Shown here: one piece after another, positions 27,135 to 45,862 of the stretch
Layout of the letters: the number at the start of each line of letters is the position of its first letter
How positions within the stretch are numbered: the first letter of the stretch is position 1
NCBI GenBank assembly: GCA_043818395.1
Contig: JBDRFZ010000030.1
Location: 10,704 to 74,703 of the forward strand
Reading direction: 5' to 3'
From: Patescibacteria group bacterium
GTDB taxonomy: Bacteria; Patescibacteriota; Patescibacteriia; 2-12-FULL-60-25
DNA: 64,000 nucleotides
The notes under the pieces: model-generated
Seen by the model: only the letters and a program-made list of their open reading frames with translations
What the model was told of the DNA's origin: nothing
The model's database searches: none
Made by a program: the position numbers and the translations under genes

Positions 27135-27172
<38 letters not shown>

Positions 27173-28787: not shown

Positions 28788-29303
28788 AGTTCCGACCCGC
28801 ACGAATGGCATAACGAGTTTGCGACTGTCTCCACATGGGACTCGGTGAAATTGCAAGTGGGGTGAAGATGCCCTGTACGCGTAGTCAGACGAAAAGACCC
28901 CGTGAAGCTTTACTACAACTTGATATTGGGTCGCGGCTTTTCATGTTCAGAATAGGTGGGAGCCTTCGGGCAACAGTGAGATACCACCCTTGAACTGACG
29001 CGATTCTCGATCCCTATCCGTGAATCCGGATGGGGAGACAGTATCTGGTGGGTAGTTTAACTGGGGCGGTTGCCTCCTAAAAAGTAACGGAGGCGTTCAC
29101 AAAGGTCAGCTAGGCGCGGATGGAAATCGCGCTGATTCCGCAATGGGATAAGCTGGCTTAACTGCAAGACCAACAAGTCGAGCAGATGCGAAAGCAGGAC
29201 ATAGTGATCCGACCGTACGATATCGGACGGCGGAAGCTCAACGGATAAAAGCTACTCCGGGGATAACAGGCTGATCGCGCCCAAGCGTCCACAGCGACGG
29301 CGC

Positions 29304-29344
<41 letters not shown>

Positions 29345-29375
29345 TAGAAGCTCCCAAGGGTTTGGCTGTTCGCCA

Positions 29376-29419
<44 letters not shown>

Positions 29420-30186: not shown

Positions 30187-30664
30187 TCGGTCTCCTGTCT
30201 ACTACGCGCGTGGAATATTGAGAGGGCAAATCTCTAGTACGAGAGGACCGAGATTTACGAACCTCTAGTGCACCAGCTGTCCCACCAGGGGCACCGTTGG
30301 GTAGCTACGTTCGGCGCGGATAAACGCTGAAAGCATATAAGCGTGAAGCCGTCCTCAAGATTAATATTCATTATGAGAGCCCTCCGAGACGAGGAGGTTG
30401 ATAGGCCGTATGTGTAAGACCTGCAAGGGTTTTAGCAGAGCGGTACTAATAGCTCCATGCTTCGACCATCCGGGATTACGATATCCAAAATCCGTAAAAT
30501 GATTTTGCGTATCACAATCCGGATATGGTTAGAAAAATTTTAAACGTGTACTTACATCAAGGTATGCCTTGTACGTACGACTTTCGATCATCAAAATGTG
30601 AAGCTTTTAACTTGCAGGTTACAGGCCTTATCCTTCGGCGATTATTCGTGATTTTTCATGGATA

Positions 30665-30785
30665 TCCGCCGGTGGCTTAAGCGGCAGTGTCACACCTGTT
30701 CCCTTTCCGAACACAGAAGTTAAGCCTGCTAGCAGCGATGGTACTTGGACCCAACCCGGTCCTGGAAGAGTAGCCCGTCGCCGGA
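30665..30785 (+). rRNA. rrf: 5S rRNA
   Basis: CCGAACACAGAAGTTAAGC and GATGGTACTTGG...CCTGGAAGAGTAG blocks. The terminal helix is TCCGCCGG pairing with TCGCCGGA. Confidence 0.9.
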
Positions 30786-30795
30786 CTAAACAGAT

Positions 30796-31781: not shown

Positions 31782-31984
31782 TTTTTAAGGTACAAGATTT
31801 CTATATGATAGCTTAGCGTTATTTTTAGGTCGAGTGGTTAAGTTGTTGAATATATCGTTTTTATCAAGTTTAGGTTATAAGCGATTTTTTTAGTCTTTAC
31901 ATACACATACATCAAAATATTAATAATTTTTATCTAATTTTAGCTTAATAGCTTAAATTTAGCTTAAAAATGTATATGTTACAC

Positions 31985-32013
31985 TTGACAAAAATTGAAA
32001 AGCATGCTATAGT
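31985..32013 (+). promoter_or_regulatory. near-consensus promoter pointing into the ORF-free left end of the GC-rich island
   Basis: TTGACA (31985-31990), a 17-nt spacer, then TATAGT (32008-32013). Confidence 0.5.
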
Positions 32014-32019
32014 GTTTGC

Positions 32020-32182
32020 GTAAAAATAAAGAAGGGTTGTAAAGGCAGTCTAGGCACCTTACAAATAAACTCAAAGGCTTGAAGGAGAGAGCAAGTCCGC
32101 GAATCCAATTTTATACACCAAGGGGTGATGGATTCGGGCGCTTTTTCCTAAAAGCTACCGAGTTCCATCACCCTTTTTGGTT
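32020..32182 (+). ncRNA. candidate ~160-nt terminated leader or sRNA
   Basis: Starts just downstream of the promoter. Hairpins TTGTAAAGG/CCTTACAA and GGCTTG/CAAGTCC are followed by a long terminator hairpin (32122-32132 pairing with 32164-32174, then TTTTT). There is no ORF. Confidence 0.35.
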
Positions 32183-32184
32183 GT

Positions 32185-32900
32185 CAGCTGGAACTTGAAA
32201 GGCAGACCCTACATTCTGCAAAACGGGCTTCGGCCCAAGCGCGGATACTCGAGGTACATAAAAAGCGGCTAGGGCAATAGTCAACAAAGTTTCGTTCGCT
32301 ACTCGCGAACACCGCCCAAAATACCGCTTCTCAATTCTGCCTTTCATATTCCAGCTCGCAAGAGCTTGAACCTTATAACTACCGCGATACTGATTGTTTT
32401 GGAGAATGAAATAGGAGAGAGATCCTGCTCCAAGATAATGAGTCGCATCTCTATTTGGTCCCGAACTAAAACGGGACAGTTGATTCGGAGTAATACCAAA
32501 ACCACCCGCCGAGAGAAGGGTGGCACGGCAAACAACCGGAGATCGACCTCGAAGTCCCTTAGAGAGACTTCGTAGTAACGAGTGCGTCCTGCCCTCTCCG
32601 ACCGTCGGAGGGGACCGGGACAGTCGCTACTACCATGGTTATGTAATAGACGACGGTCAGGACGCGACGAACTTTGACAACAAAATTCTGCTCAAGCGGA
32701 CGAACACCAATAACAATCATCTTGGGTTTCGTTTCGTCCTCTTAAGCAGAGCGCGGTTCTACTGAAGGAGTAACGCACTGGTGCGAAACTCTGGATGATA
32801 AACGGCGCTTGAAGAACGGAGGCCGGTGGCTAGATAAACCGCCGGTTAGAAAAATGGCAAAGTAGAACAAAAAAAATATCAAAATTAATTCGTTCGCGTC
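32185..32900 (+). ncRNA. candidate large structured RNA region (class unknown)
   Basis: No ORF of 60 aa or more has a ribosome-binding site. A 21-position helix with 19 pairs joins 32186-32206 to 32336-32356. A UUCG tetraloop hairpin lies at 32225-32236 and a GCAA tetraloop hairpin at 32353-32366. At least six further clean hairpins were noted, including 32458-32477, 32502-32523, 32550-32572 and 32584-32591/32658-32665. Confidence 0.35.
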
Positions 32901-33424
32901 AATTTTTTCCAAACAGTATTCAATAATAAGTTCGAGGCTCGCAATGAGCCAGAACAGAAAGGAGATCGAGAAAATAGCGGCACAGTTGAGTGCCGATCTC
33001 GCCGATCCGGAGCAGTTCCGGACGGTCATGGAGCTTGCGACCAACCGCTAGCTCCAAACCTCTCCCGCTGTTACGAGGTACAGCGGGAACAAAGAGGAAC
33101 CAACCTCAAAACGCACTCGGAGAGAAGCGCACACTTCTCATCCGATCCGAATTTTGGAAGCCCATAATTACTAAACTTGGGACTAAATCCAGACTTCAGA
33201 TCGGAGCAATCCGAAAATTACTCATGGATTCTCATTTGGCATCATAATCAAAGCGGCGGTAAAAAAGCCACCCACTGAGTTATGGAACCAAACGAGAAGC
33301 TATGAAGCCGGCACGGATAAATTCTGCACGTTGCAGGATCACGTGCGCGGTTGACGCGACTCAAACACGCACAAAACAAATATCGTGGAACGCCACGAGA
33401 ATACGTTTTGTGCAAAGGAGGCAG

Positions 33425-33610
33425 ATGGCCCATTGGCCAGCTTCCGGCCCCCACGGCCAGTGCCCGTGGTGTGGCGCGTCTGAAGACATCGGGGACTGCT
33501 GTCCCGATGCCCAGGCCGCCACCCGCGAGCCCGAGGCCGAGGGTTACCTCTGTGAGGGCGATGAAAACCGCTCTCACGGAGCCGACTCCACCCATCGGGT
33601 GGAGAATTAA
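33425..33610 (+). CDS. possible small Cys-rich protein (61 aa)
   Basis: AAAGGAGG lies 3 nt upstream of the ATG. The peptide MAHWPASGPHGQCPWCGAS...DCCPD has a zinc-ribbon-like Cys pattern. It could also be non-coding GC-rich sequence. Confidence 0.3.
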   Translation: MAHWPASGPHGQCPWCGASEDIGDCCPDAQAATREPEAEGYLCEGDENRSHGADSTHRVEN

Positions 33611-33826
33611 CCCCGGTGGGGAAACAAACGCACCGGCGTGAACCGGGACAGCTCGAACAGGGCGTCATGTGACGTCGTATCGAGTTGCGGGAGATGAGCG
33701 CCGCTTGAGGAGGGAGTGCAAGCGATCTTGCACGAGACTCCATGGCTCAAGCGCCGGAAATGACTGCCGGCGCCTAATCGCGGATTAGTCACCGCGTTTC
33801 GTACATTTCCCGGGTCTATCACCTGG

Positions 33827-34038
33827 GTTTGAGCAAAATCCTTGCTCTCTAAAACGACAGGTCGCGGCGCTTGATCACATGATCTAACATCGCGGGTTTC
33901 ACAGACCATGAATCACTCTTGAGTAATCAAGATCAATTCAAAACTGTGAGCTTGAGACGCCGTCTCCGTTTAGTAGAACGTAAAACTACAGCTACTCGCA
34001 TGCTCTCTTACGCTACTGCACAAGGCAATAGAGAGCAT
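33827..34038 (+). repeat. non-coding module A (paralog of module B)
   Basis: Shares these blocks with 35374-35603: GTTTGAGC(A/G)AAATCC, ATCGCGGGT(T/A)TCACAGACCATG, CAAAACTGTGAG(C/A)TTGAGACGC(C/A)GTCTCCGT and GAACGTAAA. It also shares a terminal hairpin whose loop contains CTGCACAAG. Confidence 0.75.
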
Positions 34039-34106
34039 CCGATCCTATTTCCGCACACTCCCATAAAGAAATCATTCTGGGTTCGTGGTTCGGAAATGAG
34101 ATCGGA

Positions 34107-34676
34107 TTATGGTCGGGCGTTTTCTTCCAATGCCGTTATTCGTTCTTCGTGGCGAAGACTGGCGTTCCGAAGGGAGGAAATCTCGATATCAACAGTCCGA
34201 TGATGCGTGGCGAACCAGTCAACATGCGTCAGAATCTCCTGCTTGAATTCTTGTAGATCATCCTTAGTCGCGAATCCAAGCAGATCATCCTTGGTGGCGA
34301 AACGCTCATCAAGGCGCCGGAATTGATCGTCTGTATGGGAAGATAGGTCGTGAACAGCCTCGAGTATGTCTTGAATTGAGGTTGTGTGTTCCTGGGAAAC
34401 AGATTTTAACCCTGCAACGTCCGTCTTCAGCTCGGTTACATCTGATTTTAACCCTGCAACGTCCGTCTTCAGCTCGGTTACATCCTTTGCAAGGATATTA
34501 ACCGTAGATTTGAGATCGGTCATGTCCTTCGTAAGACCGGCTACGCCTTTAGAAAGACCGGCCATGTCTTTAGAAAGGCCTTGGACTACATCTAAAATCT
34601 TTTCGTTGGCTGAATCAGCGGTCATATGGAGAGCATTAGTGAATGAAGAATAGCATCCTCTAAATACCGCTGCCAT
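34107..34676 (-). CDS. coiled-coil repeat protein (14-aa tandem repeats, ATKDDL motifs)
   Basis: 189-aa ORF. The repeat DVTELKTDVAGLKS occurs twice and FATKDDL occurs twice. The architecture parallels 45083..45478. The start (34676 or 34625) is uncertain. Confidence 0.55.
   Translation of the reverse strand: MAAVFRGCYSSFTNALHMTADSANEKILDVVQGLSKDMAGLSKGVAGLTKDMTDLKSTVNILAKDVTELKTDVAGLKSDVTELKTDVAGLKSVSQEHTTSIQDILEAVHDLSSHTDDQFRRLDERFATKDDLLGFATKDDLQEFKQEILTHVDWFATHHRTVDIEISSLRNASLRHEERITALEENARP
34402..34485. repeat. near-perfect 2 x 42-bp tandem duplication inside the coiled-coil gene
   Basis: GATTTTAACCCTGCAACGTCCGTCTTCAGCTCGGTTACATC(T/C) at 34402-34443 and 34444-34485. The two copies differ only at the last base. 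Confidence 0.9.
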
Positions 34677-34995
34677 AAATCGAGGGAGAGGTCAAGATGT
34701 GGATATTCGGAAACAGCGTTTTCTCGGTAGAAATCGTGATTCGAAAAAGTTCGAAGCACGATTTCTCTCGAGGAGAGAGAAAATTTTGATCGGATGATCT
34801 GAAGCGACGTCTCATACGTGAGCGAATCAAATCAGGCTCGGATCGAACGGCCGCGCGTAACGGTCGATAGCTCCATCGAGAGGTGAAGAAGAAACGTAAG
34901 CGCGGCTCCGACGCATTCGGGCAAGCGAACTCGGCGGATATTGAAACCCGCCTTTCAGAATGGAGCCCGCGGCTAGATAAACCGCGGGAGAGAAC

Positions 34996-35337
34996 ATGGC
35001 CGGCACCTACACCGTCACCGCCACCTCCGTCACCGCCACCTCCACCCCCGCCACCCTGCTCCGGTTGAGCTTCGGCTCGCCGGCGCAGAACGACGTCATC
35101 GTCCGCGACGCCGTCGTCGCCCTCGAGGCCCACAAGCTCGAGGGGGGGAAGCTGGTCCTACTGAATGGGCCCGCTTCCCTGCCAGTGGCTTGCGCCCTCG
35201 CGCACGGCCTCGGGCACATCTTCGGCGCCATCGGGGTCTTCGACCCCAAGATGGCGGGGTACGTAGTCGCGGTCAGTCATGACCCGACGTTCCCCGTGGG
35301 GATGACCATCCCAGCGTCGGAGGTGAAAGAGGGCTGA
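34996..35337 (+). CDS. Csx3-like protein (CARF-related cyclic-oligoadenylate ring nuclease family, Crn3)
   Basis: The segment GKLVLLNGPASLPVACALAHGLGHIFGAIGVFDPKMAGYVVAVSHDP matches my recollection of A. fulgidus Csx3 (G.VISGRGPIWLHCFLAHKYHH...AVYDPRLGAVVVQSH), including the His/Asp positions. Not verified by search. Confidence 0.5.
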   Translation: MAGTYTVTATSVTATSTPATLLRLSFGSPAQNDVIVRDAVVALEAHKLEGGKLVLLNGPASLPVACALAHGLGHIFGAIGVFDPKMAGYVVAVSHDPTFPVGMTIPASEVKEG

Positions 35338-35373
35338 TCACCCTCTCGAAACATATCTCGGATTGATCTCCGA

Positions 35374-35603
35374 GTTTGAGCGAAATCCCAGCTCTAGAAA
35401 ATGATGGGTCGTGATACGAGATCGAGAGATTAAGTATCGCGGGTATCACAGACCATGGAATTAGAAAAAAGTATCGTGTACTGAGTACCGGGTACTATCT
35501 CTCTAAACTCCAAAACTGTGAGATTGAGACGCAGTCTCCGTCCGTGGAACGTAAATTCACTAACACTCGAAACCCACCTAAGCCCTGCACAAGCTGCGGT
35601 GGG
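35374..35603 (+). repeat. non-coding module B (paralog of module A; its terminal hairpin is a paralog of 45023-45068)
   Basis: See module A for the shared blocks. The hairpin ACCCACC/GGTGGGT carries a loop containing CTGCACAAG. Confidence 0.75.
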
Positions 35604-35800
35604 TTCCTCGAACTGAATGTTTAAAAAAATGTCGTCTCGACTAAAACGGAGAGACCTTCAATTTGAAGATCCATTCGACTCGGCCACGGTTCTATTTTTT
35701 GGATAGGCCTTCGCTCAGGATGACAATTTTTAAACGCTCGATTCGAGGAAATGGTTCCTCCAAAACTTTCCCGCAGAACGCGGGAGAAAGGAGACGGCTA

Positions 35801-36385
35801 GTGAAAGTCGTACTCTGTGGACCCCCGCGTTCGGGGAAGTCCTGCCTAAGGCAGGGCTTAAAGGACGCGGTACGGAGCATTCCTGGGGCTCCGTACCCCT
35901 ACGTCATCACCGCGTGCCCCGACGGGGAGGGCTCGTGGTTCCAGGAGACGGTGAACTCCGACCCCGAGGCTGCTGCGAAGTTCAAGGCGGCCTACAAGAG
36001 CAAGTTCACCCCCGAGTTCGTGCGCAGGGTCGCGGACTCGGTGAAAAACTGCACCCTGTCTCTTACGCTGGTGGATATAGGCGGTATCCCCAGCGCAGAG
36101 AATAAAGAAATTTGCGCCGCCGCCACGCACGCCGTTCTTCTCGCAGGGGATACCTCGCGGTTCCCCGAGTGGCGTGAGTTTTGCGAGAAACTCGGAATCT
36201 CTGTCCTGGCCGAGATTGCGAGTAACTACCAAGGCCAGGAAGACTCCCCGCCGTATCTCGACGGCGACGAGGGAGTCTTCGTCGGTTCGGTTCACCACCT
36301 CGAACGCGGTGAACCGGTCGCAGAGCGCCCGACTGTCAAGGCGCTCGCCGAGATTCTGGTCGCGTTGGTCGGCGATCAGGAGTAG
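35801..36385 (+). CDS. P-loop NTPase (kinase/ATPase-like), function unknown
   Basis: AAAGGAGA SD and a GTG start. Walker A (VVLCGPPRSGKSC), an ACPDGEGSW segment and a Walker-B-like LSLTLVDIGG. Confidence 0.6.
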   Translation: MKVVLCGPPRSGKSCLRQGLKDAVRSIPGAPYPYVITACPDGEGSWFQETVNSDPEAAAKFKAAYKSKFTPEFVRRVADSVKNCTLSLTLVDIGGIPSAENKEICAAATHAVLLAGDTSRFPEWREFCEKLGISVLAEIASNYQGQEDSPPYLDGDEGVFVGSVHHLERGEPVAERPTVKALAEILVALVGDQE

Positions 36386-36405
36386 TTAGACCAACCGGGC
36401 GAAGA

Positions 36406-36737
36406 GATCCCTCGACTTCGCTCGGGACGACAGAGGGCAGGAGATATAGCGACTCCTCTTTTAAACAATTCGCTTATCACTCGAAGCTCGGTTGCACATC
36501 CGGGCTCTTCGAATGGAAGTTTGATTGAATTCGTCATTCCCGGGAAAATGGGAATCCAGGTAGCTTGCTGATGGATCCCCGCTTTCGCGAGGATGACGTA
36601 GATCGAAAATCCGTTCGAGGAAGAGTTCCTTGTGTTTTTCTTTCCGCACAGGTCCGGAACAGATGCCTATTTTGACGGATGAGTCAGATGACTCTCTCCG
36701 TCAGGCTACCTGTTATCTTAGGGGGAAGTTCCGGATC
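36406..36737. repeat. left copy of a ~300-bp imperfect direct repeat (E and D modules)
   Basis: E1 (36406-36459) and D1 (36653-36737) are colinear with E2 (43904-43956) and D2 (44123-44207). Shared strings include ACAGAGGGCAGGAGATA, ACTCTCTCCG and GGAAGTTCCGGATC. Confidence 0.6.
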
Positions 36738-36759
36738 GGTGCGGGAATAAAAAACAAAA

Positions 36760-36984
36760 TCAAATTAGTTTTATAAAGTCTTCCGGTGACAGATCGATAT
36801 CGCGCAAAATGCCTCTGAGCGTACCGCGCGGCAAGTCTTGATTGCCATGCATGGGGATGGTTGCCAACCGACCATCACGATGGCGTAATTGAACATGGCT
36901 GCCGCGTTGTCGCGTAATCATAAACCCTGCTTTTTGCAGGGTTGCGATCAATATTTTACCGGAGATAACCGGAAGCGGCGGCAT
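36760..36984 (-). CDS. hicA: HicA-family mRNA interferase toxin
   Basis: 74 aa. GKILIATLQKAGF ... RQRGSHVQLRH is a typical HicA/YcfA core. Confidence 0.85.
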   Translation of the reverse strand: MPPLPVISGKILIATLQKAGFMITRQRGSHVQLRHRDGRLATIPMHGNQDLPRGTLRGILRDIDLSPEDFIKLI

Positions 36985-36989
36985 AACGA

Positions 36990-37223
36990 TCAGATTTGCG
37001 GTTCAGCTACTGTCTCGAAAGTCTCAAAGCTTCTGTCTTCCGGAAGTGACTCGCGATTGGCTGCCATATCTTCCAAATAAAGCTGGATGGCTTCGCGGAT
37101 ATTTTGTTTGGTTTCTTCCAAGGATTTGCCCCAGGTATGACAACCGGGCAACGAAGGTACGAAAGCATGAAAAGACTGACCCTCATCCGGCTCGATGATT
37201 ACTCGATAAGTCAATGCTCTCAT
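36990..37223 (-). CDS. hicB: HicB-family antitoxin (N-terminal UPF0150 fold only)
   Basis: YRVIIEPDEGQSFHAFVPSLPGCHTWGKSLEETKQNIREAIQLYLE. Sits directly upstream of hicA. Start taken at MRALTYR. Confidence 0.8.
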   Translation of the reverse strand: MRALTYRVIIEPDEGQSFHAFVPSLPGCHTWGKSLEETKQNIREAIQLYLEDMAANRESLPEDRSFETFETVAEPQI

Positions 37224-37253
37224 ATGTCTGAAGCCTAACATCGGACGGACGGC

Positions 37254-37305
37254 CTGTCAAAGGCCAAACCTTCCCTTGTCAAACCTTCCCTTGTCAAACC
37301 TTCCC
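37254..37305. repeat. tandem 15-bp repeats TTGTCAAACCTTCCC (2 perfect, 1-2 degenerate)
   Basis: Perfect copies lie at 37276-37290 and 37291-37305, with degenerate copies at 37254-37275. Lies between divergent hicB and the 37404 gene. On the minus strand each unit contains TTGACA. Confidence 0.85.
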
Positions 37306-37403
37306 ATGCTTAAAAAAGGTTCTAAAATTATTTGGAATCTTTTTTGAGGATGAGTATCCTCTGGCGCGCCGGACGAATTCCGGATTTGGCCAACGGAGGA
37401 AAC

Positions 37404-37754
37404 ATGGCCAAAAAAATTCTCTGGATGTCGCGCCATCGACCGACGGCGCGGCAGATCCAGTCGCTCCGCGTCATGTATGGCGCGGATACGGTCGTCGAAG
37501 TGGAGCCGCGGCCCTTCGACGACGCGCGACAGATCGCGCGGCGATTCAAGGAAGGCGGATTCCACGATCTCGTGGTCGTGGCGCCGCTTTCGGTCCTGGC
37601 TGTCTTGTGCGATCAGGGGCTTAAACCTCTGTGGTCACAGGCGGCCGAGGAAAACGATCCCGCGAAGATCGAATTTCGCGGGGCACGTGGGCAGGGCTAC
37701 CGCTTCGTCCGGTTTCGCCGAGTGAAGCGAGTGGCAGTCGAGTTTGAGGACTAA
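37404..37754 (+). CDS. hypothetical protein (116 aa)
   Basis: GGAGGA SD 4 nt upstream of the ATG. GC-rich codon usage consistent with the neighbouring genes. No motif recognised. Confidence 0.5.
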   Translation: MAKKILWMSRHRPTARQIQSLRVMYGADTVVEVEPRPFDDARQIARRFKEGGFHDLVVVAPLSVLAVLCDQGLKPLWSQAAEENDPAKIEFRGARGQGYRFVRFRRVKRVAVEFED

Positions 37755-37778
37755 CAAAAACAAAAAGGAAAGGAAAAA

Positions 37779-38051
37779 ATGGTCCAGAAAGTCTGGACCC
37801 TGGCTTCGGGTCAGGAGGTCGTGGATCGCGACGTCTCGCATATCCATGCGGGCGTCACGGACGAACTCTTATCCGAGGCACTCTCGTCGCTAAGCGTAGG
37901 TGACGGAGAGCGGGTCAAATATACGCATTTCTTCAGACGCACGGTCGGTGTCTCCCATTGCGTGAAAACGCAGGACGGGGAAGCTCCGAAGCGTCATGGG
38001 CAAGCGGTCATCTGCCTTTTTGTGGACAAGATAAACGGGTGCGGGAGTTGA
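37779..38051 (+). CDS. hypothetical protein (90 aa)
   Basis: AGGAAAGGA SD-like stretch before the ATG, 24 nt after the previous stop. Confidence 0.4.
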   Translation: MVQKVWTLASGQEVVDRDVSHIHAGVTDELLSEALSSLSVGDGERVKYTHFFRRTVGVSHCVKTQDGEAPKRHGQAVICLFVDKINGCGS

Positions 38052-38098
38052 TTGGTTCTCTCGCAAGTCCACCCCAAAACTCCGGAAAGGAGAAAACC

Positions 38099-38452
38099 AT
38101 GAACAAGGAAGAATGGAAAGAAGAAAAAGCGCGTCGTCAGGACGCGCTGAAAGAATTTGAAACAAAAAACGCGGCCGAGCTCGAGGCCGCCCGCCACTTG
38201 TTGGCGGAGAACGAGCGCCTGCGCCGGTTGGCGTGGGCTGGCGCCCCCGAAGGGCACGCCCGTTGTTACGGCTACGACGAAGAGTCGGACGTCGACTGCG
38301 ATAAGGTCGTGCCTTTGCGGGAACATGAAAGTGTTCCCGTGGGGTGGTGTATTCGCACCTATGGCTGCGGGTGCAGTGAGCCAGAGACAATGTTTTGTCC
38401 GGCACATGCGCACCAGGCACGCGAAGACCGTTGTGCCGAATGCAGTCGTTAG
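38099..38452 (+). CDS. hypothetical Cys-rich protein (117 aa)
   Basis: GGAAAGGAGA SD before the ATG at 38099. N-terminal helix, then a C-terminal cysteine cluster (CYGY...DC...CIRTYGCGC...CPAH...CAEC). Confidence 0.45.
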   Translation: MNKEEWKEEKARRQDALKEFETKNAAELEAARHLLAENERLRRLAWAGAPEGHARCYGYDEESDVDCDKVVPLREHESVPVGWCIRTYGCGCSEPETMFCPAHAHQAREDRCAECSR

Positions 38453-38605
38453 TTCTTTCTCGCGGTGCGCTCACGTTTTGTGATGCGCACCGCCCGTTTT
38501 TTTCGTACATATTGGATGGTCCGATGTGCACGGAAAGTTCGGTCGGCGATGACGTAATCGTCGCTACAAAAAAAAGGCCGCCAAGGGCGGCAGAAAGAGA
38601 ATCAC

Positions 38606-39820
38606 GTGAGTGATCTCAAAACGGCCGTTGCCCTGGCGGCCAAGATCCAGGGCATTTCAAAGGACGTCCTCGCGCGCCACATTGGGCGCGGGGACGTGGT
38701 GCGAGCCACCTGGCTCGCACTCGTGAGCGGCCGTCCGGCCTTCTTCCTCGGGCCTCCCGGGGTGGACAAGACCGGGACGGTTCAGGATTTGGCGCGTAGG
38801 GTCGACGGAGCCGTCTTTTTTGACGCGCTCATGCCGACCCTCGTCTCGGTCGAGCAGCTCCTCGTGGAGAGTACCTCCATCGAGGAGTCGTCGACGGCGG
38901 ATGGCGGAAAGTCCATCCGTACGCGCGACACGCTCGGCCGCGCTGCCGGCGCGCATCTCCTCTTCGCCGATGAGATCTGGAAAGCAGAACCCCGTGTTCT
39001 GCAGACGGTTCTCGACCTGGCGAAAGGGGACGGCGTGCGCCACGAGGGAACGCAGGTCAAGACGCCTCTCAAGGCGTTCTTGGCCGCGTCCAACGAGCTC
39101 CCTGACTCCGAGGGAAACCTCGGCGCGGTTTGGTCTCGTATGACCATCCGCGTCGTAGTCAAGGAGCTCGATCGCAAAGGCAAAACCGCGTTGGTCAAGG
39201 CGCGGTTGGCCAAAGTACGTGGCATGTCTGCCAAGGCCAGCGGGAGCGACAAGCTCACGCTCGCCGAAGTGGACGATCTGCGCGCTGCGCGCAGCCGGAT
39301 CGAAATCTCGGATGAAATCGTGGAGATCGTGCTCGACATCGTCGAGCAGCTCCGCGATGAAAACTCCGGAACGTTCGACTGGGCCTGGGCCGACGACCGG
39401 CGTTTCGGTCGCGTGTTCGACGTCATGCAGGCTAACGCCTTGCTCGATGGCCGAACGCGGGTCGGAAAACAGGACCTCGCGGTTCTGGAGTGGCTACTCT
39501 GGGATTCACCCGAGCAGATTCCGACGGTCAAGGCCAAGATCGCGCCGTTTTGCCGCACTCCGCTCATGGATGCACAGGAGATGCTCGACGCACTCCTGGC
39601 TCCCGGAGGGGTTGTGGCAGATGTGCTCGGCGGCAACCGGACCAAAGGCGTGGCGGCTCTGACGCAGTGTGAAAGCTGCGCCGGTGAGCTTGCTACGCTC
39701 AAGGCCAGCGCTGACGCGAGTATGGCGCAGGGCATCGACCAGCTGGTCCGGCAGCTGGAGTCCGTGAAAGCGGACGTGATCGCAGTGATCACCGGAACGC
39801 GGACGTCCGCCGCGAAATAG
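38606..39820 (+). CDS. MoxR-like AAA+ ATPase
   Basis: Walker A (FFLGPPGVDKTG), Walker B (LLFADEIWKAEP) and the following VLQTVLDL...G segment are typical of MoxR/AAA_5 ATPases. GTG start. Confidence 0.75.
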   Translation: MSDLKTAVALAAKIQGISKDVLARHIGRGDVVRATWLALVSGRPAFFLGPPGVDKTGTVQDLARRVDGAVFFDALMPTLVSVEQLLVESTSIEESSTADGGKSIRTRDTLGRAAGAHLLFADEIWKAEPRVLQTVLDLAKGDGVRHEGTQVKTPLKAFLAASNELPDSEGNLGAVWSRMTIRVVVKELDRKGKTALVKARLAKVRGMSAKASGSDKLTLAEVDDLRAARSRIEISDEIVEIVLDIVEQLRDENSGTFDWAWADDRRFGRVFDVMQANALLDGRTRVGKQDLAVLEWLLWDSPEQIPTVKAKIAPFCRTPLMDAQEMLDALLAPGGVVADVLGGNRTKGVAALTQCESCAGELATLKASADASMAQGIDQLVRQLESVKADVIAVITGTRTSAAK

Positions 39821-39861
39821 CGGACCCGTAGGGGCGGGGTCTCCCCGCCCAAGGAGGATAC

Positions 39862-41652
39862 GTGGAAGAAACTCGAAAGGGCGGACCCGCGTGTCCGCCC
39901 ATCGCGCGACAGGAGCTGCAAAAGCTCCTGGTGACGGACGCGGACGCCTTTACGGCGCTCCGCTACCTCCGTCACCGCGAGAACGTTCCCTCGCTCCCGG
40001 ATCTGGAAGAGCAGGGCCGCAAGGCTCTGCCCGGGATTGAGGGTAGTCTCTGCGACCTCTACCACACGCTTTGGGCGCCAGAGCCCAGCGTGAAGGAAGA
40101 GGTTGCGTCGGACCGCCGTTACTGGCGTGAGTTGCTCGGTGAGGCTGTGAAATCCACGGCATACGCCGAGCTGCATGCCAGTACGCAGCTCTCGGAGCTA
40201 AAGTCCGTACTGGGCACCGTGGCCATGGGTGAAACCGTGGTCAAGACGGTGTCCAAGGAGGACGCTGAGAAGCTGCAAGAGACGGCAACTGCGCAACGTG
40301 AGGCCGACGATGCGCAGCAAGAAGCAGACCAGGCGCAAGCCGCGGCAGACATGGCGCAAGCCATGTTCGAATCCGCGAATGCGCAAGCTGGTCAGGGCCA
40401 GGGGAGCGGAGGATCTCAAAAAGATCCTTCGACTACGCTTCGCTCCGCTCAGGACGACAGTTCTGGCGGACAGCTGCAGCCCGGCCAGGGCAAACCCGGA
40501 AAAAGATCCCTCGACTCCGCTCGGGACGACAATTCGTCATCGACCGGTGGGCGAGGGACACTGACCCCGGAGCAAGCCAAGGCGTTGGCTGACGCACTGG
40601 CTGATGAGTGGCTCAAAGCGCAGGAATGCGCCGAGGCCGCGAATCAGTTAGCCGCCGAAGCCAAAGCCAAGGCCGAAGCCCTGGCTAATGAACTTCTGGG
40701 CCAACCCGGCAAGCAGCAAGCGGAGCAAAAGCTTCGCGAACTGGCGCGCGCCGGGCAAGCGGCAATCAAGGCCGCACAAGCCAAGGTGGAGGAGGTTTCC
40801 GAAACCATCGAGGCTTGGGGACTTGAGGAAGCCGAGCTCACGCGCCAGAGCATTCCCGAAGCATTGGGTTTGCTCGAGCGCATGAAGCGAAGTGCGGCAC
40901 TCAAGAAGTTCGCGGCTCTGCTCGGTCGCTTGCGCAAGATCGCGGCTCGCAAAGCGCGATCCAAAACGCAGGCCAGAGGCGTACGCATTGCTATCCCGGA
41001 AACGGGACGCGACATGCGCCGCGCCTACCCGAGCGAGCTGGTGGCTCTCGCACATCCGGCGACCCGCACCCAAGCGCTCAAGCGCTGGGCACGCGGCGAG
41101 CTGCGATTGCGCGGCGAGCAAGCTAAGCAAAAGCTTGGCCATGGCCCGGTCATCGTCTGCGAAGACGCGTCCGGGTCCATGGATGGAGCCAAGCAACAGT
41201 GGGCCAAGGGAGTAGTTCTTTCCCTGGCGCACTTTGCAAAACTCCAGAAGCGGTCGTTCGGTTGGATCATGTTCGATTCCCGAGTTCATCGGGCGGAAGA
41301 ATATCCTGCCGGGCGCATCGCGGCCAAGCAGATGCTTGATATCGTGGAGTCCCACGCCGGTGGCGGCACGGACTTCGAACGCCCACTGCGCAAAGCGCTG
41401 GAAATGGTGAAACAAACCGGCCTCAAAAAGGCCGACATCTGCTTCATCACCGACGGCGAATGCGCAGTGAGCGAAACTTTCCTGCGGGAATTTAAAGCGG
41501 CTAAACGCGAACTTGAAATCAATGTCTTCACGATTCTGTGCGACGTTGGTTCGAGCGCGGACAGCACCGTCAGCGAATTCTCTGACAGGATCGAAACGGT
41601 TTCCAGCTTCTCGGCAGAAGAAGCGGAGACCAAGGTGTTTGGTTCTTTGTAG
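39862..41652 (+). CDS. vWA-domain protein with an acidic, low-complexity linker (CoxE/CobT-like architecture)
   Basis: AAGGAGGA SD and a GTG start. The C-terminal vWA domain has the MIDAS motif (VCEDASGSMDG) plus GGGTDFERPL and FITDGE. The central linker is Ala/Gln/Asp-rich. Confidence 0.8.
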   Translation: MEETRKGGPACPPIARQELQKLLVTDADAFTALRYLRHRENVPSLPDLEEQGRKALPGIEGSLCDLYHTLWAPEPSVKEEVASDRRYWRELLGEAVKSTAYAELHASTQLSELKSVLGTVAMGETVVKTVSKEDAEKLQETATAQREADDAQQEADQAQAAADMAQAMFESANAQAGQGQGSGGSQKDPSTTLRSAQDDSSGGQLQPGQGKPGKRSLDSARDDNSSSTGGRGTLTPEQAKALADALADEWLKAQECAEAANQLAAEAKAKAEALANELLGQPGKQQAEQKLRELARAGQAAIKAAQAKVEEVSETIEAWGLEEAELTRQSIPEALGLLERMKRSAALKKFAALLGRLRKIAARKARSKTQARGVRIAIPETGRDMRRAYPSELVALAHPATRTQALKRWARGELRLRGEQAKQKLGHGPVIVCEDASGSMDGAKQQWAKGVVLSLAHFAKLQKRSFGWIMFDSRVHRAEEYPAGRIAAKQMLDIVESHAGGGTDFERPLRKALEMVKQTGLKKADICFITDGECAVSETFLREFKAAKRELEINVFTILCDVGSSADSTVSEFSDRIETVSSFSAEEAETKVFGSL

Positions 41653-41822
41653 GGGCACAGCGTGCTGTGCCCCTACGCTCGGACGACGTTTGCCGCATCG
41701 TCTTTTGCTCTCGGGAAGCGCAGCACTTGCGCTTCCCCTGATTTTTTCCGTCTGGAGCATGGTGCTCGAGATGGGAAATTTCAGTTTTTCGGCCGTGCAT
41801 GGCCAAGTAAAAGGAGGCCGCC

Positions 41823-43886
41823 ATGGCCGAGAAAAGAATTGAAACAGTCCTGGCCAAGGCCGGGAATAACCCGGCCGAAGCGGTGGCCACCATTGGCCGC
41901 CGCAGCATCTGTTTCCTGCCGCGCGGCGTTACGCCCGGGCAGGAGGTCCGTGTCGAGCTCGTTGAGCTCGGCAAAAATGACAGCCGCGGAAATCCAATGT
42001 TCCGCGGCGTGGCCGCTCCCACGGAGACCGTGGTCGAGTGGCGTGAACTCGACGGCAGGTTCGAGAGCGTTGAGTTCTCGGTCGACTGGAAGCTCCAGAA
42101 GACCGAGAAACGCGTGCTCGAGAGCCGCGTGCCAGTCAAGCGCGACGGCGTACCGAGTCGCAACGCGAGCTTCAAGGTCGACTGGGCTCAGTCGTTCACC
42201 GACGCCCGGATCAAGGTCGAAATCAAGACTGAGATCCCGGAGCTCGAGGAACAACTCGGCTCTAACGGGCCGGCGATGATCGAGAAGACTCGCCGTGACG
42301 GCGGCACCACGGTCGAAGAGTTTGCGCTCAAGACCCTGGAGCCCTGCCGCTCGGGCTACGTCGACTCCAATGACTGGCACGGTAAGCGTCTGCGTGCCAG
42401 TTATGAGGGAGAGCCGAAGCTGTTCGTTAGCTTCATACTTTCCTACGGCGAGAAGTCGTTCGAGACCAACTCGCAAGAGTGGTCTTCACTGCCGACGTGG
42501 CTCAAGGAGCAACTCTCGGCCCCGTATCCGCTCTGCGGATGCGGGCAGTCTCGTTTCGATTCTGCGGGGCATCATGCCTGCGCAGACTGCGAGACGATCG
42601 AGCGCGTTCTCCCGGCCGAAAAGCGGCAGGAGATCGCGGCGCTTGCCGAGAAGCTCCTTGCCGTGGAGCCTCTGCCTCGCGAAGCCGGCGAGATCGTGCT
42701 CAAGTCAACGCTTGGGCATGTGACGTCGGAATACACGCGCGACAGTATTCTCCGCCAGTGGTCCGGGTTCGCCTGGTACTACTTTGCGGGTGATGGCGTG
42801 TACGGGAGCAAGTTCCCGCGATCCGCGCTCCAGGTTCTGCGTTTCATTGCGCAGGCCGAAGGCGATGGATTGTTGGAGCTCGCGGCCTGGCTCTGCGGTC
42901 GCGACAAGGCGGACGACTGCGAGCGCTACGGAGATTACTTCGTGGCGACGCAAGTCAAAGGCGAGAGCCGGTCGCGCACGCTCCAGAGCAACCGCGACGC
43001 CACGGCCGCAATTCGCCTGCGCGGCTCTGAAGCCGACCGTTTGGCTGCGCTCGAAGCGTATGCCGAAATGGTCGAGGTTTGGGGTAAGGATTCGAGCCAG
43101 GCGGAATCGCTTAACACGATTCTGCAGGGTGAGAGTCAGGACTATAGCCAGGCCATGGCCAAGGCGCAGGACGCGCTGCGACTCCATGAAGCACGGACGC
43201 GCGCCATCCAAGCCGGAGAAATTTGGCAGGATGTCCGTGTGAATTGGGAAGAAAGTAGTAATGGCCGAGCCCGTGGCAAAGGCTGGGCCATTGCGCCGGA
43301 TGGAGAGTTCTACCCGGAATTAGATGGCGATGCTCACGCCTTCGGTGACCTGCCAACCAACACGCTTGTGCTTTCGCACAGCACCTCGGATTATGGCTAC
43401 CGCTATACCGAATGCTGGACGGTTCACAAGCTGCCCAAGCAGGTCACGGGTGAGCAGCACGTGGCGCTTACAGGACTCCTTCAAGGGGAACGGCAGTTTT
43501 TCTGCGGTGATCGGGCGACGTGGAATCTAACCCGCGAGGGGACTGTTCGCATCGCCACCGCTTACCACAGAGACTTCGTCGGGACCGATGCCGAAGCGCA
43601 TCGGGCCATGCGTGGCACCTTGCCCATGGATTTGTCCAGATGGTTCCTGTATGAAGTCATGCAGGACGAACATGGATATGATCTGCAGGAAGCGATGCTG
43701 GAAGTCTGGCATCGCGAGGTGCGCGACGCGCATGGCATGCGCCTGCGGTATCGCCCGGCGGCTGCTGCAAAGCAGTTCAAGAAGGTCGCTCCCGCCAACG
43801 TCAAGCCCGCAAGCGCTGAGCAGGTCACAACTTCGCTCGGCGCTCTCAAGGCCAAGTTCGGCGGCCGTCGCGAAAAGCGCCGCTAA
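41823..43886 (+). CDS. large hypothetical protein (687 aa), third member of the MoxR-vWA cassette
   Basis: AAGGAGG SD. Long GC-rich ORF with an internal CGCG...C..C cysteine cluster. No domain recognised by eye. Confidence 0.65.
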   Translation: MAEKRIETVLAKAGNNPAEAVATIGRRSICFLPRGVTPGQEVRVELVELGKNDSRGNPMFRGVAAPTETVVEWRELDGRFESVEFSVDWKLQKTEKRVLESRVPVKRDGVPSRNASFKVDWAQSFTDARIKVEIKTEIPELEEQLGSNGPAMIEKTRRDGGTTVEEFALKTLEPCRSGYVDSNDWHGKRLRASYEGEPKLFVSFILSYGEKSFETNSQEWSSLPTWLKEQLSAPYPLCGCGQSRFDSAGHHACADCETIERVLPAEKRQEIAALAEKLLAVEPLPREAGEIVLKSTLGHVTSEYTRDSILRQWSGFAWYYFAGDGVYGSKFPRSALQVLRFIAQAEGDGLLELAAWLCGRDKADDCERYGDYFVATQVKGESRSRTLQSNRDATAAIRLRGSEADRLAALEAYAEMVEVWGKDSSQAESLNTILQGESQDYSQAMAKAQDALRLHEARTRAIQAGEIWQDVRVNWEESSNGRARGKGWAIAPDGEFYPELDGDAHAFGDLPTNTLVLSHSTSDYGYRYTECWTVHKLPKQVTGEQHVALTGLLQGERQFFCGDRATWNLTREGTVRIATAYHRDFVGTDAEAHRAMRGTLPMDLSRWFLYEVMQDEHGYDLQEAMLEVWHREVRDAHGMRLRYRPAAAAKQFKKVAPANVKPASAEQVTTSLGALKAKFGGRREKRR

Positions 43887-43903
43887 AAAAACCCGAATAA
43901 AAT

Positions 43904-44207
43904 ATCCCTCAACTTTATTCGGGACAACAGAGGGCAGGAGATATGACAGCTCCTCTCATCGCAAGATGAAAAACAATCTGTCTGCACCTTGGGCGCGGCA
44001 ACCGTGCCCCTACGGGGAAGGATGAGATTGCACATCTCATCTTTCCCTCCTGAATTTTCTGACGTTTTTTAAAAAAGGTCGGAATGACAGGTTTCTCACA
44101 CGAGGTGGGTTTTCAGCACAGATTCGGAACAAGGCCTATATTGATTGGTTAGCCTAGCGAACTCTCTCCGCCGGGTCGCCCGTAATCATAGGAGGAAGTT
44201 CCGGATC
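43904..44207. repeat. right copy of the E and D direct repeat
   Basis: See the entry for 36406-36737. Confidence 0.6.
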
Positions 44208-44385
44208 TATGCGGAAAAAATGTAAAAAACACTCATGGTCATGAGTCTGATTAAAGTTAGACTCATGCCTATGATTGGGCAGATGGTTCAAATCCACACG
44301 AATAAGACGCGAAGCAATTATGTCGGACGTTTGAATGATCCAAGACTGGATCGATCGTGTGGAGGAGAGCAAGAAGGAAATAGAA

Positions 44386-44964
44386 ATGATCAAGTTCGAA
44401 ATCGCCAACATCGTAACTTCCTTTTCTTTTTTTGCGATCGGCACCAAGGTGCTCGATCGCGAGGGTCTGCTCACGGCGGCCGCGAAAGCGGTCGAGGCGC
44501 ACGACCCGTCGGGCGACCGGCAGCCAGGGCAGCACTTCGTGCTCGTCCCGGACGGCGTGCGGCTCGTCTCCGCCGGAGTTGGTCGCCGGACCGATAACCC
44601 CGACGACTATGTCGTACGGAAGGGTCGGTTCGCCGTTGACTGCTATCTTCGGCGTGAGAAGGCGGCGAAGGTCGAAGGCTTGGCTCTCGTGGTCTACACC
44701 AGGGACGCCTACCTCGCCGACCCCGACCTCCAGAAGCCGGAGGAGGCCGAGGAGCGCGCGCGGATCGAACAGAGCGACTGCACCCACGTCATCGTGGCCG
44801 TGCTCGCCTTTGCTGGCCCGCAGTCGCCACTGCCGCCCTCGACTTTCATCCACAACTTGGCCGGGGGAAACCTCGAGGTCGAGAAGTGGTCGAAGGAGGA
44901 GATCTGTGAGAAGGCCGCGCAGATCGAGGCGTACTGGAACGACTGGTGCATCGTGGCGGATTAG
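44386..44964 (+). CDS. hypothetical protein (192 aa)
   Basis: AAGGAA SD-like stretch before the ATG. The opposite-strand 260-aa ORF is Arg/Leu-rich, as expected for antisense of GC-rich coding DNA. No motif confidently recognised. Confidence 0.55.
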   Translation: MIKFEIANIVTSFSFFAIGTKVLDREGLLTAAAKAVEAHDPSGDRQPGQHFVLVPDGVRLVSAGVGRRTDNPDDYVVRKGRFAVDCYLRREKAAKVEGLALVVYTRDAYLADPDLQKPEEAEERARIEQSDCTHVIVAVLAFAGPQSPLPPSTFIHNLAGGNLEVEKWSKEEICEKAAQIEAYWNDWCIVAD

Positions 44965-45031
44965 TCGTTCCACCCTCTCCTGACATCCGGGGTTGTCAGG
45001 AAAAAAGAGGTTCGTAACCCTAAAACTCGAA

Positions 45032-45063
45032 ATCCACCGAAGCGTGCACATGCTGCGGTGGAT
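45032..45063. terminator. bidirectional terminator hairpin at the right edge of the island (paralog of the module B hairpin)
   Basis: ATCCACC/GGTGGAT stem with a loop containing TGCACA. A T-run lies to the right and an A-rich stretch to the left. Sits between convergent genes. Confidence 0.6.
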
Positions 45064-45082
45064 TTTTATTTTTAGATGAATT

Positions 45083-45478
45083 TCAATTCCTTGCGAACGG
45101 ATCTATGGCCAGGATATGTTTAGCATCCTTTTCTTTGATAGCTTTATTGGATAAAGCGGCATCTATAAGCGCATTCACTTTATTATCTTCTTTTCTGATA
45201 AGAGAGACTAGGTCGCCCTTTAAATCACCAAGTTTGTCGTCCAGATAGTCTTTGGTGACCATAGTCGCTTCTATTTTATTAAATCGCTTATCAATTTGTT
45301 CAAACCGCCCGTCAATCTGCTCGAATCGCTTATCAATTTGTTCAAACCGCCCATCAATCTGTTCGAATTTACGATCGATTAAAGAGAAACGATTATCAAC
45401 ACTACCGGCAAAATCGTTTATAGCATCGAGCAGATCATGGTTCGTCGGTTCCTGATTCATATATAACAGAGCTATCAC
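45083..45478 (-). CDS. coiled-coil repeat protein (IDGRFEQIDKRFEQ tandem repeats, VTKDYL motif)
   Basis: 131 aa. The 42-bp repeat unit is duplicated at about 45283-45370. Composition is AT-rich. Same architecture as 34107..34676. Confidence 0.6.
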   Translation of the reverse strand: MIALLYMNQEPTNHDLLDAINDFAGSVDNRFSLIDRKFEQIDGRFEQIDKRFEQIDGRFEQIDKRFNKIEATMVTKDYLDDKLGDLKGDLVSLIRKEDNKVNALIDAALSNKAIKEKDAKHILAIDPFARN

Positions 45479-45499: not shown

Positions 45500-45862
45500 T
45501 GTGGATAGATGTGGATAAGAAAATAATACATGTTATGTTATAATTTGCTCAATGAAGCGAGGAAAAATAAAAAAACGTCGTATATCCGTAGCTCGGATAA
45601 TAGAAAACGAATTCGGCAATGTGAATCAGGATTTAAATTTTTGGCTGCATCATGTTTTGCATTGGCATTTATTATTGGCGGTTTTGATTATCTTCCTCTC
45701 ATATAACTATTTTAAATAGGGGCTACGTATCTAAATGATTATCCGTCGAAAGATCCTTCATTTCGTCGAACTTCATTCAGGACGACGAACCAGTAGAAAT
45801 TATGTTAATCCGTAGAGATTCGATTATGTAGGTTATCCACAGGTTATGAAAGGTTATCCACA
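45500..45862. promoter_or_regulatory. DnaA-box cluster (candidate oriC or DnaA-regulated region)
   Basis: TGTGGATAG at 45500-45508 (1 mismatch), TGTGGATAA at 45510-45518 (exact), and TTATCCACA at 45833-45841 and 45854-45862 (both exact). Degenerate boxes such as TTATCCGTC lie at about 45739. The surrounding intergenic DNA is AT-rich. Confidence 0.5.

Follow-up and report, generated by a model that had tools for sequence, protein, structure and literature searches.

RavA-ViaA, CoxD-CoxE, NorQ-NorD and CbbQ-CbbO, each made up of a MoxR-type AAA+ ATPase and a protein with a von Willebrand factor A (vWA) domain, are maturation factors. MoxR-vWA pairs are also central to a group of ternary conflict systems, for which Csx3 is recorded as an effector domain (Kaur, Burroughs, Iyer and Aravind, 2020, eLife; PMC7159879). 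In Patescibacteria (candidate phyla radiation, CPR), genomic islands and mostly intra-Patescibacteria transfer have been reported, for example an island with a type I restriction-modification system (PMC12455944, mSystems 2025), so that an island as such is not new in these bacteria. Here we analyse a stretch of 64,000 nucleotides, in what follows the window, from a Patescibacteria group bacterium (GCA_043818395.1, contig JBDRFZ010000030.1), in which a GC-rich block of about 13 kb (31985-45075) encodes a MoxR-vWA pair together with a conserved third protein of 687 residues (X687, hereafter X), a small conserved protein (p116) and separate Csx3 and P-loop proteins. We hold, with moderate confidence, that this block is a genuine genomic island of a GC-rich mosaic family circulating in the CPR, and we read its core as a MoxR-vWA conflict-type module. 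As with the reported islands, a CPR genome here carries an accessory block of deviant composition, but this particular recurrent GC-rich cassette family and its absence of integration machinery are not described for them, and the word 'MoxR' does not occur in that text (PMC12455944). What appears to be undescribed is the recurrent and always GC-elevated cassette family, the combination of X with p116, and the modular architecture devoid of a recombinase.

Composition sets the block apart, as a reading made from the letters of the DNA without database searches (the sequence-only reading) had proposed. GC is 0.567 between 31985 and 45075 compared with 0.449 in the rest of the window, and in the sliding-window profile the raised block spans ~32.0 to 45.07 kb, while the backbone runs mostly at 0.37-0.49, the exceptions being the rRNA operon and three GC-rich gene patches. 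GC at third codon positions (GC3) is 0.64-0.90 in the plus-strand island genes, highest in those for Csx3 (0.90), p209 (0.82) and MoxR (0.78), as against 0.27-0.55 in 36 genes of backbone composition outside; three further genes outside are GC-rich (u497, 0.57; u871, 0.62; Gam, 0.64). GC at first codon positions (GC1) is also higher in the island genes (0.63-0.71 versus 0.42-0.60, with most backbone genes at or below 0.56), so that the island proteins themselves bear a GC-rich imprint. Tetranucleotide z-scores of the island core correlate with those of its own backbone at only 0.14-0.22, compared with 0.59 between the two halves of the backbone. The idea of a single GC-rich block is correct for the overall elevation but not for homogeneity: the island is built as a mosaic in which GC-rich cassettes are interspersed with backbone-like genes, the minus-strand genes (a coiled-coil gene at 34107-34676, hicA and hicB) having a GC3 of 0.46-0.49 and the non-coding modules an intermediate GC. 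By gene coordinates ~32% of the island is non-coding, in strongly structured and repeated modules. At the finer scale, GTG starts were read directly at the AAA, MoxR and vWA genes, and long antisense open reading frames (ORFs) were found as described (464 aa at 38782-40176; 370 aa at 40648-41760). Strong ribosome-binding sites (GGAG/AGGAGG) precede the AAA, p116, p117, vWA and X genes, as had been claimed, but the MoxR gene has only a weak AAAGAG. The calls made for the cargo hold by Pfam and PADLOC.

The right edge of the block is sharp and lies at ~45,070: GC in 200-nt windows is 0.62-0.67 before and 0.36-0.38 after a step between 44.9 and 45.1 kb, and the fall at 45.0-45.1 kb is complete within ~150 nt. 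The left edge is graded, an AT-rich spacer (GC 0.235 at 31.8-32.0 kb) being followed by values of 0.43-0.52 up to 33.3 kb. So sharp a break on the right, in a metagenome-assembled genome, could suggest that assembly or binning joined GC-rich DNA of another organism to a CPR contig, and the left junction has no independent confirmation. We nevertheless consider such a chimera extremely unlikely. Within one contig the island is flanked left and right by backbone of like composition, and backbone-like genes (hicAB, coiled-coil) are interleaved with the GC-rich cassettes. Moreover, the right junction and the core are reproduced in L006 (GCA_040961345.1), an independent assembly and the sole close relative found (EndoQ identity 79%). 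Position 45079 of the window aligns with 18583 of L006 and is followed by the same coiled-coil gene, DnaA boxes, LytR_C and EndoQ, and the core p116-MoxR-vWA-X of L006 has 71-85% protein identity to that of the window. A chimera is thereby excluded on that side, and the sequence-only reading was right, for the right side, that the block is not a trivial assembly artefact. Equivalent islands with both flanks are present in the independently assembled pairs L007/L008, L089/L090 and L091/L092, and every close homologue with a taxon-specific source name belongs to the CPR.

The core and the small ORFs within it are as follows:

37404..37754 (+): p116, a conserved small core protein, 45-82% identical in L006 and in the loci L007, L089 and L098 described below
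37779-38051 and 38099-38452 (+): p90 and the Cys-rich p117, small variable ORFs; L006 has a different 250-aa gene here
38606..39820 (+): MoxR-type AAA+ ATPase, 404 aa, GTG start; PF20030 bpMoxR (3.1e-18), PF17868, PF07728
39862..41652 (+): vWA protein, 596 aa, GTG start; PF05762 and PF13519
41823..43886 (+): X687, 687 aa; AlphaFold2 (AF2) model with a pLDDT of 74

The MoxR and vWA genes are adjacent, 41 nt apart, and the Pfam model PF20030 that matches MoxR derives from the ternary conflict systems of Kaur et al. (2020). As in those systems, an adjacent MoxR AAA+ ATPase and vWA protein are accompanied by a conserved third large protein and by Csx3, the accessory and C-terminal parts vary, and the neighbourhood includes toxin-antitoxin genes (PMC7159879). 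The locus differs from them in its extra conserved p116, in a separate Csx3 plus P-loop pair, and in its hosts, which are ultra-small CPR bacteria and not multicellular actinobacteria or cyanobacteria. In the vWA protein the domain itself is C-terminal and is preceded by a long N-terminal part that is helical and of low complexity.

RavA-ViaA of Enterobacteria is a homologous MoxR and vWA pair (NCBIfam RavA, 1.9e-31; ViaA, 1.3e-12), but the proteins of the island are far under the equivalog level, at 110 bits against a cut-off of 681 for RavA and 48 against 500 for ViaA, and the island has no LARA or LdcI context. RavA-ViaA is also more distant than gp66-gp63 of the Bacillus jumbo phage 0305phi8-36, the nearest annotated relatives (29% identity for MoxR and 35-37% for vWA), and the vWA protein matches phrog_24053 (3.3e-59), the only match in a PHROGs scan of the island. 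This phage likeness, the many small Cys-rich ORFs and the Mu Gam-like gene with a PHROG protein at 62-64 kb could point to a remnant of a prophage, phage satellite or integrative conjugative element in which MoxR-vWA is phage cargo. The locus of phage 0305phi8-36 is without a counterpart of X, p116 or Csx3. We regard an origin of this kind as distinctly unlikely, as no capsid, terminase, portal, tail, replication, integrase or conjugation gene was found in the island or in the six other contexts in which the core occurs. In addition, a search of 2.9 million IMG/VR contigs found neither X nor a close relative of this MoxR, only a single MoxR match at 30%, and X is absent from 50,697 phage records.

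X has no Pfam, NCBIfam, PADLOC, PHROG or PDB relative. It combines an OB-fold at the N-terminus with a beta-sheet region, a Cys4 motif resembling a zinc ribbon, one helical and one small beta domain, and a tail that is basic and disordered. Foldseek searches with the AF2 model against PDB and BFVD returned only small OB-fold matches and no whole-chain match; the OB-fold (~65 residues) matches the OB insert of SPOUT1 with a Foldseek probability of 0.98-1.0 and, more weakly (0.47-0.75), IF1/eIF1A-type folds. A word index yielded 18 relatives of X, of which the three named ones are Patescibacteria (two) and 'bacterium' (one), and a profile search yielded 482 representative clusters, 118 of them below 1e-30. 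The C-terminal beta domain (profile positions ~488-630, X687 residues ~467-560) also matches by itself in dozens of proteins of other lengths and architectures and thus appears to be a mobile domain. For p116 likewise no known family was found in Pfam, PADLOC, NCBIfam or PHROG and no relative in PDB, and its single-sequence AF2 model was unusable (pLDDT 45). Sequence or profile searches of PDB with the AAA protein, p116 and Csx3 gave nothing useful.

The argument for a circulating family comes from the places where the core is found. It was recovered in seven contexts, namely the window, L006 and five other loci, and in all seven its GC lies above that of the flanks:

L007/L008: adjoins TrmB and SPP; cassette GC 0.56-0.68, flanks 0.42-0.46
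L089/L090: between murG and murC in a cell-wall cluster; cassette GC 0.54-0.60, flanks 0.40-0.45
L091/L092: adjoins ruvA; cassette GC 0.60-0.67, flanks 0.47-0.52
L097: MoxR cluster named candidate division WWE3 by one source; cassette GC 0.50-0.60, flanks 0.38-0.45
L098: MoxR cluster named Candidatus Jacksonbacteria by one source; cassette GC 0.52-0.60, flanks 0.38-0.46

Sequence comparison thus places the core at different chromosomal sites in different CPR lineages, each time richer in GC than the host DNA. The core has in most cases a Csx3 and P-loop AAA pair and toxin-antitoxin genes in its company. Toxin-antitoxin genes stand beside the cassette in five of the seven contexts (the window, L006, L091/L092, L097 and L098), and accessory genes turn over even between the near-identical contigs L091 and L092. 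L006 differs from the window by extra genes of 232, 349, 648 and 250 aa. Csx3 and AAA are fused in some related islands (L006, 405 aa; L097, 421 aa), and the fusion in L006 is a different one, its AAA part being only 33% identical to the AAA protein of the window. The latter is 70-72% identical to the copies in L098 and L089, and the Csx3 of the window is 65% identical to that of L098; this incongruence of pairwise identities with the species relationship indicates exchange of individual cassettes between distant CPR lineages. As a separate observation, in L089 perfect 68-nt direct repeats (3028-3095 and 13004-13070) bracket the ~10-kb cassette between murG and murC. Each consists of a hairpin followed by a ribosome-binding-site module, and they could be att-like or repeated units of a 5' untranslated region (5'-UTR); a 48-nt module, 94% identical, occurs at 3102 and 12059 of the same locus.

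In the lineage of the window and L006 the island lies between the 23S-5S/kinase block and the DnaA-box/LytR_C/EndoQ block. A scan of genome contigs with the histidine kinase returned only distant proteins from other phyla. The island is present at the site in L006 and absent at or below 67% EndoQ identity, so that, as regards synteny, the block is not conserved at this position across the wider clade: L094 and L095 (67%) keep LytR_C-EndoQ and the right-hand synteny without the cassette, in L029 the 23S-5S genes lie only 2.6 kb upstream of EndoQ, and none of 80 metagenome loci has a cassette upstream, nor is there a GC step in the 16 of these 80 that were profiled for GC. Silent-site distance between the window and L006 (four-fold sites, F81) is 0.52 for the island (n=754 sites) and 1.13 for the flanking backbone (n=206), and the lower value in the island may reflect either exchange after the lineages split or slower silent-site evolution. 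Composition, the junction shared with L006 and absence in the wider clade together support the earlier proposal of a foreign, accessory or conflict-type island without visible integration machinery.

These comparisons also bear on the alternative that the locus is ancient, vertically inherited and housekeeping-like in the CPR, for instance a MoxR-vWA chaperone for the maturation of X, its high GC being kept by selection or by a bias of codon use or RNA structure. The MoxR family is widespread and highly conserved in the CPR (>228 clusters of homologues, the best 120 at 61-85% identity), the position of the island is shared with the sister genome, and the known MoxR-vWA pairs are maturation factors. 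We nonetheless find vertical inheritance unlikely. The neighbourhood differs from lineage to lineage and includes an insertion within the conserved murG-murC block, the cassette is missing from the syntenic site in relatives at 67% identity, and the identities of AAA and Csx3 contradict the species relationship. Accessory-gene turnover, the toxin-antitoxin genes and repeats that accompany the cassette, and a silent-site distance in the island about half that of the flanks likewise speak against it.

As to the source of the GC-rich DNA, the sequence-only reading had looked to an outside donor lineage, and none was found: all close homologues with a taxon-specific source name are from Patescibacteria. 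Among the best 120 MoxR homologues every taxon-specific source name is from Patescibacteria, two being called only 'bacterium' and most hits being unnamed. Transfer from a GC-rich organism outside the CPR, such as the host of an episymbiont, for instance an actinobacterium, would suit an island GC of 0.57-0.64, which is typical of many potential hosts, and the abundance of MoxR-vWA ternary systems in Actinobacteria (PMC7159879). This donor is, in our estimate, very improbable, given that the taxon-specific names among the best 120 MoxR matches (61-100% identity) and the 18 X homologues are all Patescibacteria/CPR, that no closer non-CPR relative is among those MoxR and X matches, and that GC-rich CPR relatives (L094, GC 0.63; L015, 0.60) suffice as donors. 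L094 (Logan SRR26196968, 14.3 kb) has a GC of 0.63 throughout, compared with 0.37-0.45 in the window backbone, L010 and L011; with its conserved right-flank synteny, it means that GC varies very widely among closely related Patescibacteria.

The absence of integration machinery was correctly noted in the sequence-only reading. The nearest tRNA genes lie at 24.1 and 55.8 kb, no recombinase domain occurs among the island ORFs scanned, and the longest exact edge-to-edge match, direct or inverted, is 11 nt, within the 9-14 nt of a shuffled null. Recombinases are absent in five of the six other contexts, and the tyrosine recombinase near the cassette in L098 could be Xer.

It should be noted that a number of observations weigh against a mobile conflict-type island. 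Unlike the third components of the described ternary systems (VMAP, iSTAND, FtsH, beta-propeller), to which it has no similarity, X shows neither a propeller nor an NTPase in its AF2 model, and the vWA protein has no recognisable fused effector domain or array. No effector is recognisable in fusion with X either, but its C-terminal region is variable and the domain there recurs in other architectures; Csx3 is a separate gene. MoxR-vWA pairs also have housekeeping roles such as metal-cofactor insertion and enzyme activation. No cas family was seen among the window ORFs scanned or in the related loci listed, and no PADLOC model other than those for Csx3 matched the island cargo. With no recombinase, tRNA target or att repeat, mobility is deduced from distribution only. 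The cassette was not found inside any GC-rich CPR genome, which leaves the donor conjectural. The shared site in L006 and the silent-site distance of 0.52 mean that the island is not a recent arrival, and GC at four-fold degenerate sites (GC4) of the island genes has stayed at 0.71-0.81 in both genomes despite that distance, as vertical inheritance would also have it. The unconfirmed left junction belongs to the same account.

Beyond the core, the genes that link the island to known effectors and toxins are:

34996..35337 (+): Csx3-family protein, 113 aa; GC3 0.90; PF09620 (1.9e-7), PADLOC Csx3 (1.5e-15)
35801..36385 (+): P-loop NTPase (AAA), 194 aa, GTG start; PDLC01045 Csx3-AAA (8.8e-58, profile positions 108-285)
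36760-36984 and 36990-37241 (-): hicA and hicB; PF07927 (5.7e-19) and PF15919 (1.4e-13); GC3 0.49 and 0.46

Csx3 is the ring nuclease Crn3. The protein of the island scores 31.3 bits with PF09620 against a gathering cut-off of 21, has a weak match to AF1864 Csx3, and reaches 23 bits with the NCBIfam Crn3/Csx3 equivalog, below its cut-off of 55. The P-loop NTPase named in the sequence-only reading does have a P-loop, with the Walker A motif GPPRSGKS and an invariant ACPDGEG motif, and is more exactly the AAA half of a known Csx3-AAA pair. A Csx3 domain and a linked P-loop domain are thus both present, as in the Csx3-AAA and AAA-Csx3 accessories of type III CRISPR-Cas systems (PDLC01045, PDLC01059). 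In contrast to these, the two genes are split by a 460-bp structured repeat and linked to MoxR-vWA, and the window contains neither cas genes nor a CRISPR array. HicA and HicB form a type II toxin-antitoxin pair of adjacent minus-strand genes, 5 nt apart. Upstream of hicB, at 37265-37305, the 15-mer CAAACCTTCCCTTGT is repeated 2.7 times, possibly as an operator site.

From these relationships we infer an overall conflict or defence-type module, a role that toxin-antitoxin neighbours, accessory-gene turnover and variable C-termini fit. The core would be an NTP-dependent MoxR-vWA 'ternary' system in which a MoxR ring and a vWA adaptor remodel X, and X would bind nucleic acid, probably RNA, its OB-fold and zinc-ribbon being suggestive features. 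Csx3, with its RNase or ring-nuclease fold, and the kinase-like P-loop protein would form an RNA-directed effector or regulator, with RNA or a cyclic-oligonucleotide signal as the molecule acted on. GC-rich CPR lineages may be the origin of the island or its cassettes, as suggested by the raised GC1 and GC3 and the existence of GC-rich relatives. The island or cassettes, which have no recombinase of their own, could spread through uptake of DNA followed by recombination, either homologous or illegitimate, and the structured modules repeated between genes may assist such exchange, since the genes that they flank are non-homologous. Transcription would run rightward from a consensus promoter at 31985. 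The cassette could alternatively be a maturation machine for X. A bolder proposal, tentative and in our view doubtful, is that of an undescribed CPR-wide RNA-directed immune or conflict system, with X as sensor or target, MoxR-vWA as trigger and the Csx3 and kinase-like pair as effector, carried on a novel type of recombinase-less mobile module. Such a module would retain its GC-rich composition in AT-rich hosts and swap gene cassettes through recombination at the structured repeats between genes, in loose analogy to an integron that lacks the integrase.

The left part of the island, its non-coding modules and its right end hold the following further features (MFE, minimum free energy; REP, repetitive extragenic palindrome):

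31985..32013 (+): near-consensus sigma-70-type promoter at the left edge; TTGACA, 17-nt spacer, TG-n-TATAGT
32018..32943 (+): structured non-coding leader or non-coding RNA (ncRNA), ~900 nt; MFE -316 kcal/mol, z = -7.1
32944..33051 (+): 35-aa ORF, uncertain gene; the counterpart slot in L006 is a 349-aa gene between the same conserved non-coding blocks
33426..33610 (+): p61, a 60-aa Cys-rich ORF; GC3 0.70, AAGGAGG upstream, no family match
33744..34106 (+): non-coding module B, copy 1; E 6e-20 to copy 2
34107..34676 (-): coiled-coil protein, 189 aa, with a 42-bp tandem repeat; GC3 0.46; 36% identity to a 119-aa protein of L006
34965..34994 (+): 5'-UTR hairpin with the conserved loop GGCTAGATAAACC, directly upstream of csx3
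35338..35800 (+): non-coding module B, copy 2, which separates csx3 from the AAA gene
36386..36759 (+): non-coding module A, copy 1, a REP-like terminator hairpin then two long hairpins; z = -7.5
43887..44334 (+): non-coding module A, copy 2; z = -7.0, E 4e-22 to copy 1
44335..44964 (+): p209, start possibly 44386; GC3 0.82
45010..45070 (+): partial module-B hairpin (loop TGCACA), ending exactly at the sharp right compositional boundary

The promoter at 31985, with 11 of 12 hexamer matches and an extended -10, is the top site within 31.5-46.2 kb. Just 5' of its -35 element, at 31941-31967, lie three TAGCTTAA direct repeats, which are possible operator sites. A second hairpin with the GGCTAGATAAACC loop occurs at 32822-32851, its stem changes being compensatory. 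In the island of L006 the stretch corresponding to 32520-32944 is conserved (E 6e-14) at another position, module A copies are also present, and p209 has a distant positional counterpart in a DUF3228 protein, 25% identical behind an 82%-identical UTR; modules in the window and in L006 flank genes that are non-homologous or barely homologous. No Rfam family was detected in any of the structured non-coding regions, at gathering level or at E up to 5. We rejected a cassette-wide ncRNA family, since the two modules, the REP-like motif and the 5'-UTR hairpin are specific to the lineage of the window and L006: both of these carry them, and they were undetectable in the more distant islands.

REP-like elements had been said to occur in both backbone and island, and to argue in this way against a chimera. 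The statement is weakly true, as nearly all copies lie inside (35710, 36417, 40444, 40516 and 43899) and those outside, at 45772 and 63028, are degenerate; the argument carries little weight, since most of the repeats are the island's own. A REP-like 31-mer opens module A, and the 31-mer AAAAGATCCCTCGACTCCGCTCGGGACGACA occurs in frame twice in the low-complexity linker of the vWA protein (40419-40449 and 40501-40531), where it encodes ...KDPSTTLRSAQDD... and ...KRSLDSARDD..., so that a repeat element has become part of coding sequence. Both coiled-coil genes, the one within the island and the one at its right border (45083-45478), contain 42-bp tandem repeats encoding 14-aa repeats, in two copies each (34402-34484, 100% identical; 45282-45368, 95%), and both have counterparts in L006 (36% identity for the island gene, 48% for the border gene). 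The two genes are not significantly similar to one another, and a target-gene duplication bracketing the GC-rich block was rejected.

The DnaA-box cluster to the right of the island, reported by the sequence-only reading, is real: all three perfect boxes (TTATCCACA) of the window lie at 45510-45862. A one-mismatch box also belongs to the cluster (45500-45862), which is partly conserved in L006 (19086 and 19326). An origin of replication at this cluster is doubtful, and oriC is not supported here, as the cumulative GC skew rises through 45.5 kb without a minimum and peaks at ~49.5 kb, the point at which gene orientations converge. Pfam scans of 33 window ORFs revealed no dnaA gene, with ~15 backbone ORFs of at least 150 aa lying outside that set.

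The backbone carries hallmarks of the CPR, with a LAGLIDADG insertion in the 23S rRNA gene and an EndoQ whose nearest homologues are from Patescibacteria or Uhrbacteria. X687 and MoxR match proteins encoded on a 79,297-bp contig of an NCBI metagenome-assembled genome named 'Patescibacteria group bacterium' at 100% identity. In the rRNA region (25885-30786) the 23S gene measures 3,589 nt compared with a model of 2,925 nt and contains a LAGLIDADG endonuclease ORF (28133-28744); a second such ORF (29485-30039) lies in an unusually long 23S-5S spacer of 1.2 kb, and there is no adjacent 16S gene. A second GC-rich patch, at 12071-17687, consists of two large ORFs without a family match (497 aa, GC3 0.57; 871 aa, GC3 0.62), between which lies a methyltransferase gene of backbone composition (13669-14865; PADLOC 'mad2', 1.4e-17), and may be another acquired defence-type block. 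At the right end of the window, 62197-63947 contains a Mu Gam-like gene (GC3 0.64; PF07352, 6.8e-29; phrog_491) adjoining a gene whose product matches phrog_32062 (7e-55), with the degenerate REP-like copy at 63028 between them; this region is possibly a phage-derived remnant.

Patescibacteria have tiny genomes with few recognised defence systems, and gene exchange among them is poorly understood. Against this background, a conserved multi-gene module that takes up ~1% of such a genome turns up repeatedly in distant CPR lineages, and its central protein is without a known relative. The GC-rich signature that it keeps in AT-rich hosts is the reverse of the usual AT bias of mobile DNA, and its movement and reshuffling without a visible recombinase point to transformation and recombination. 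The GC3 contrast and the MoxR family may also serve as practical markers for tracing gene flow within the CPR. If the module is an immune system, it would add a new class of third component to the MoxR-vWA ternary systems and provide a handle on phage or host conflict in the CPR; if it instead serves the maturation of X, a cellular function specific to these bacteria would have been identified.

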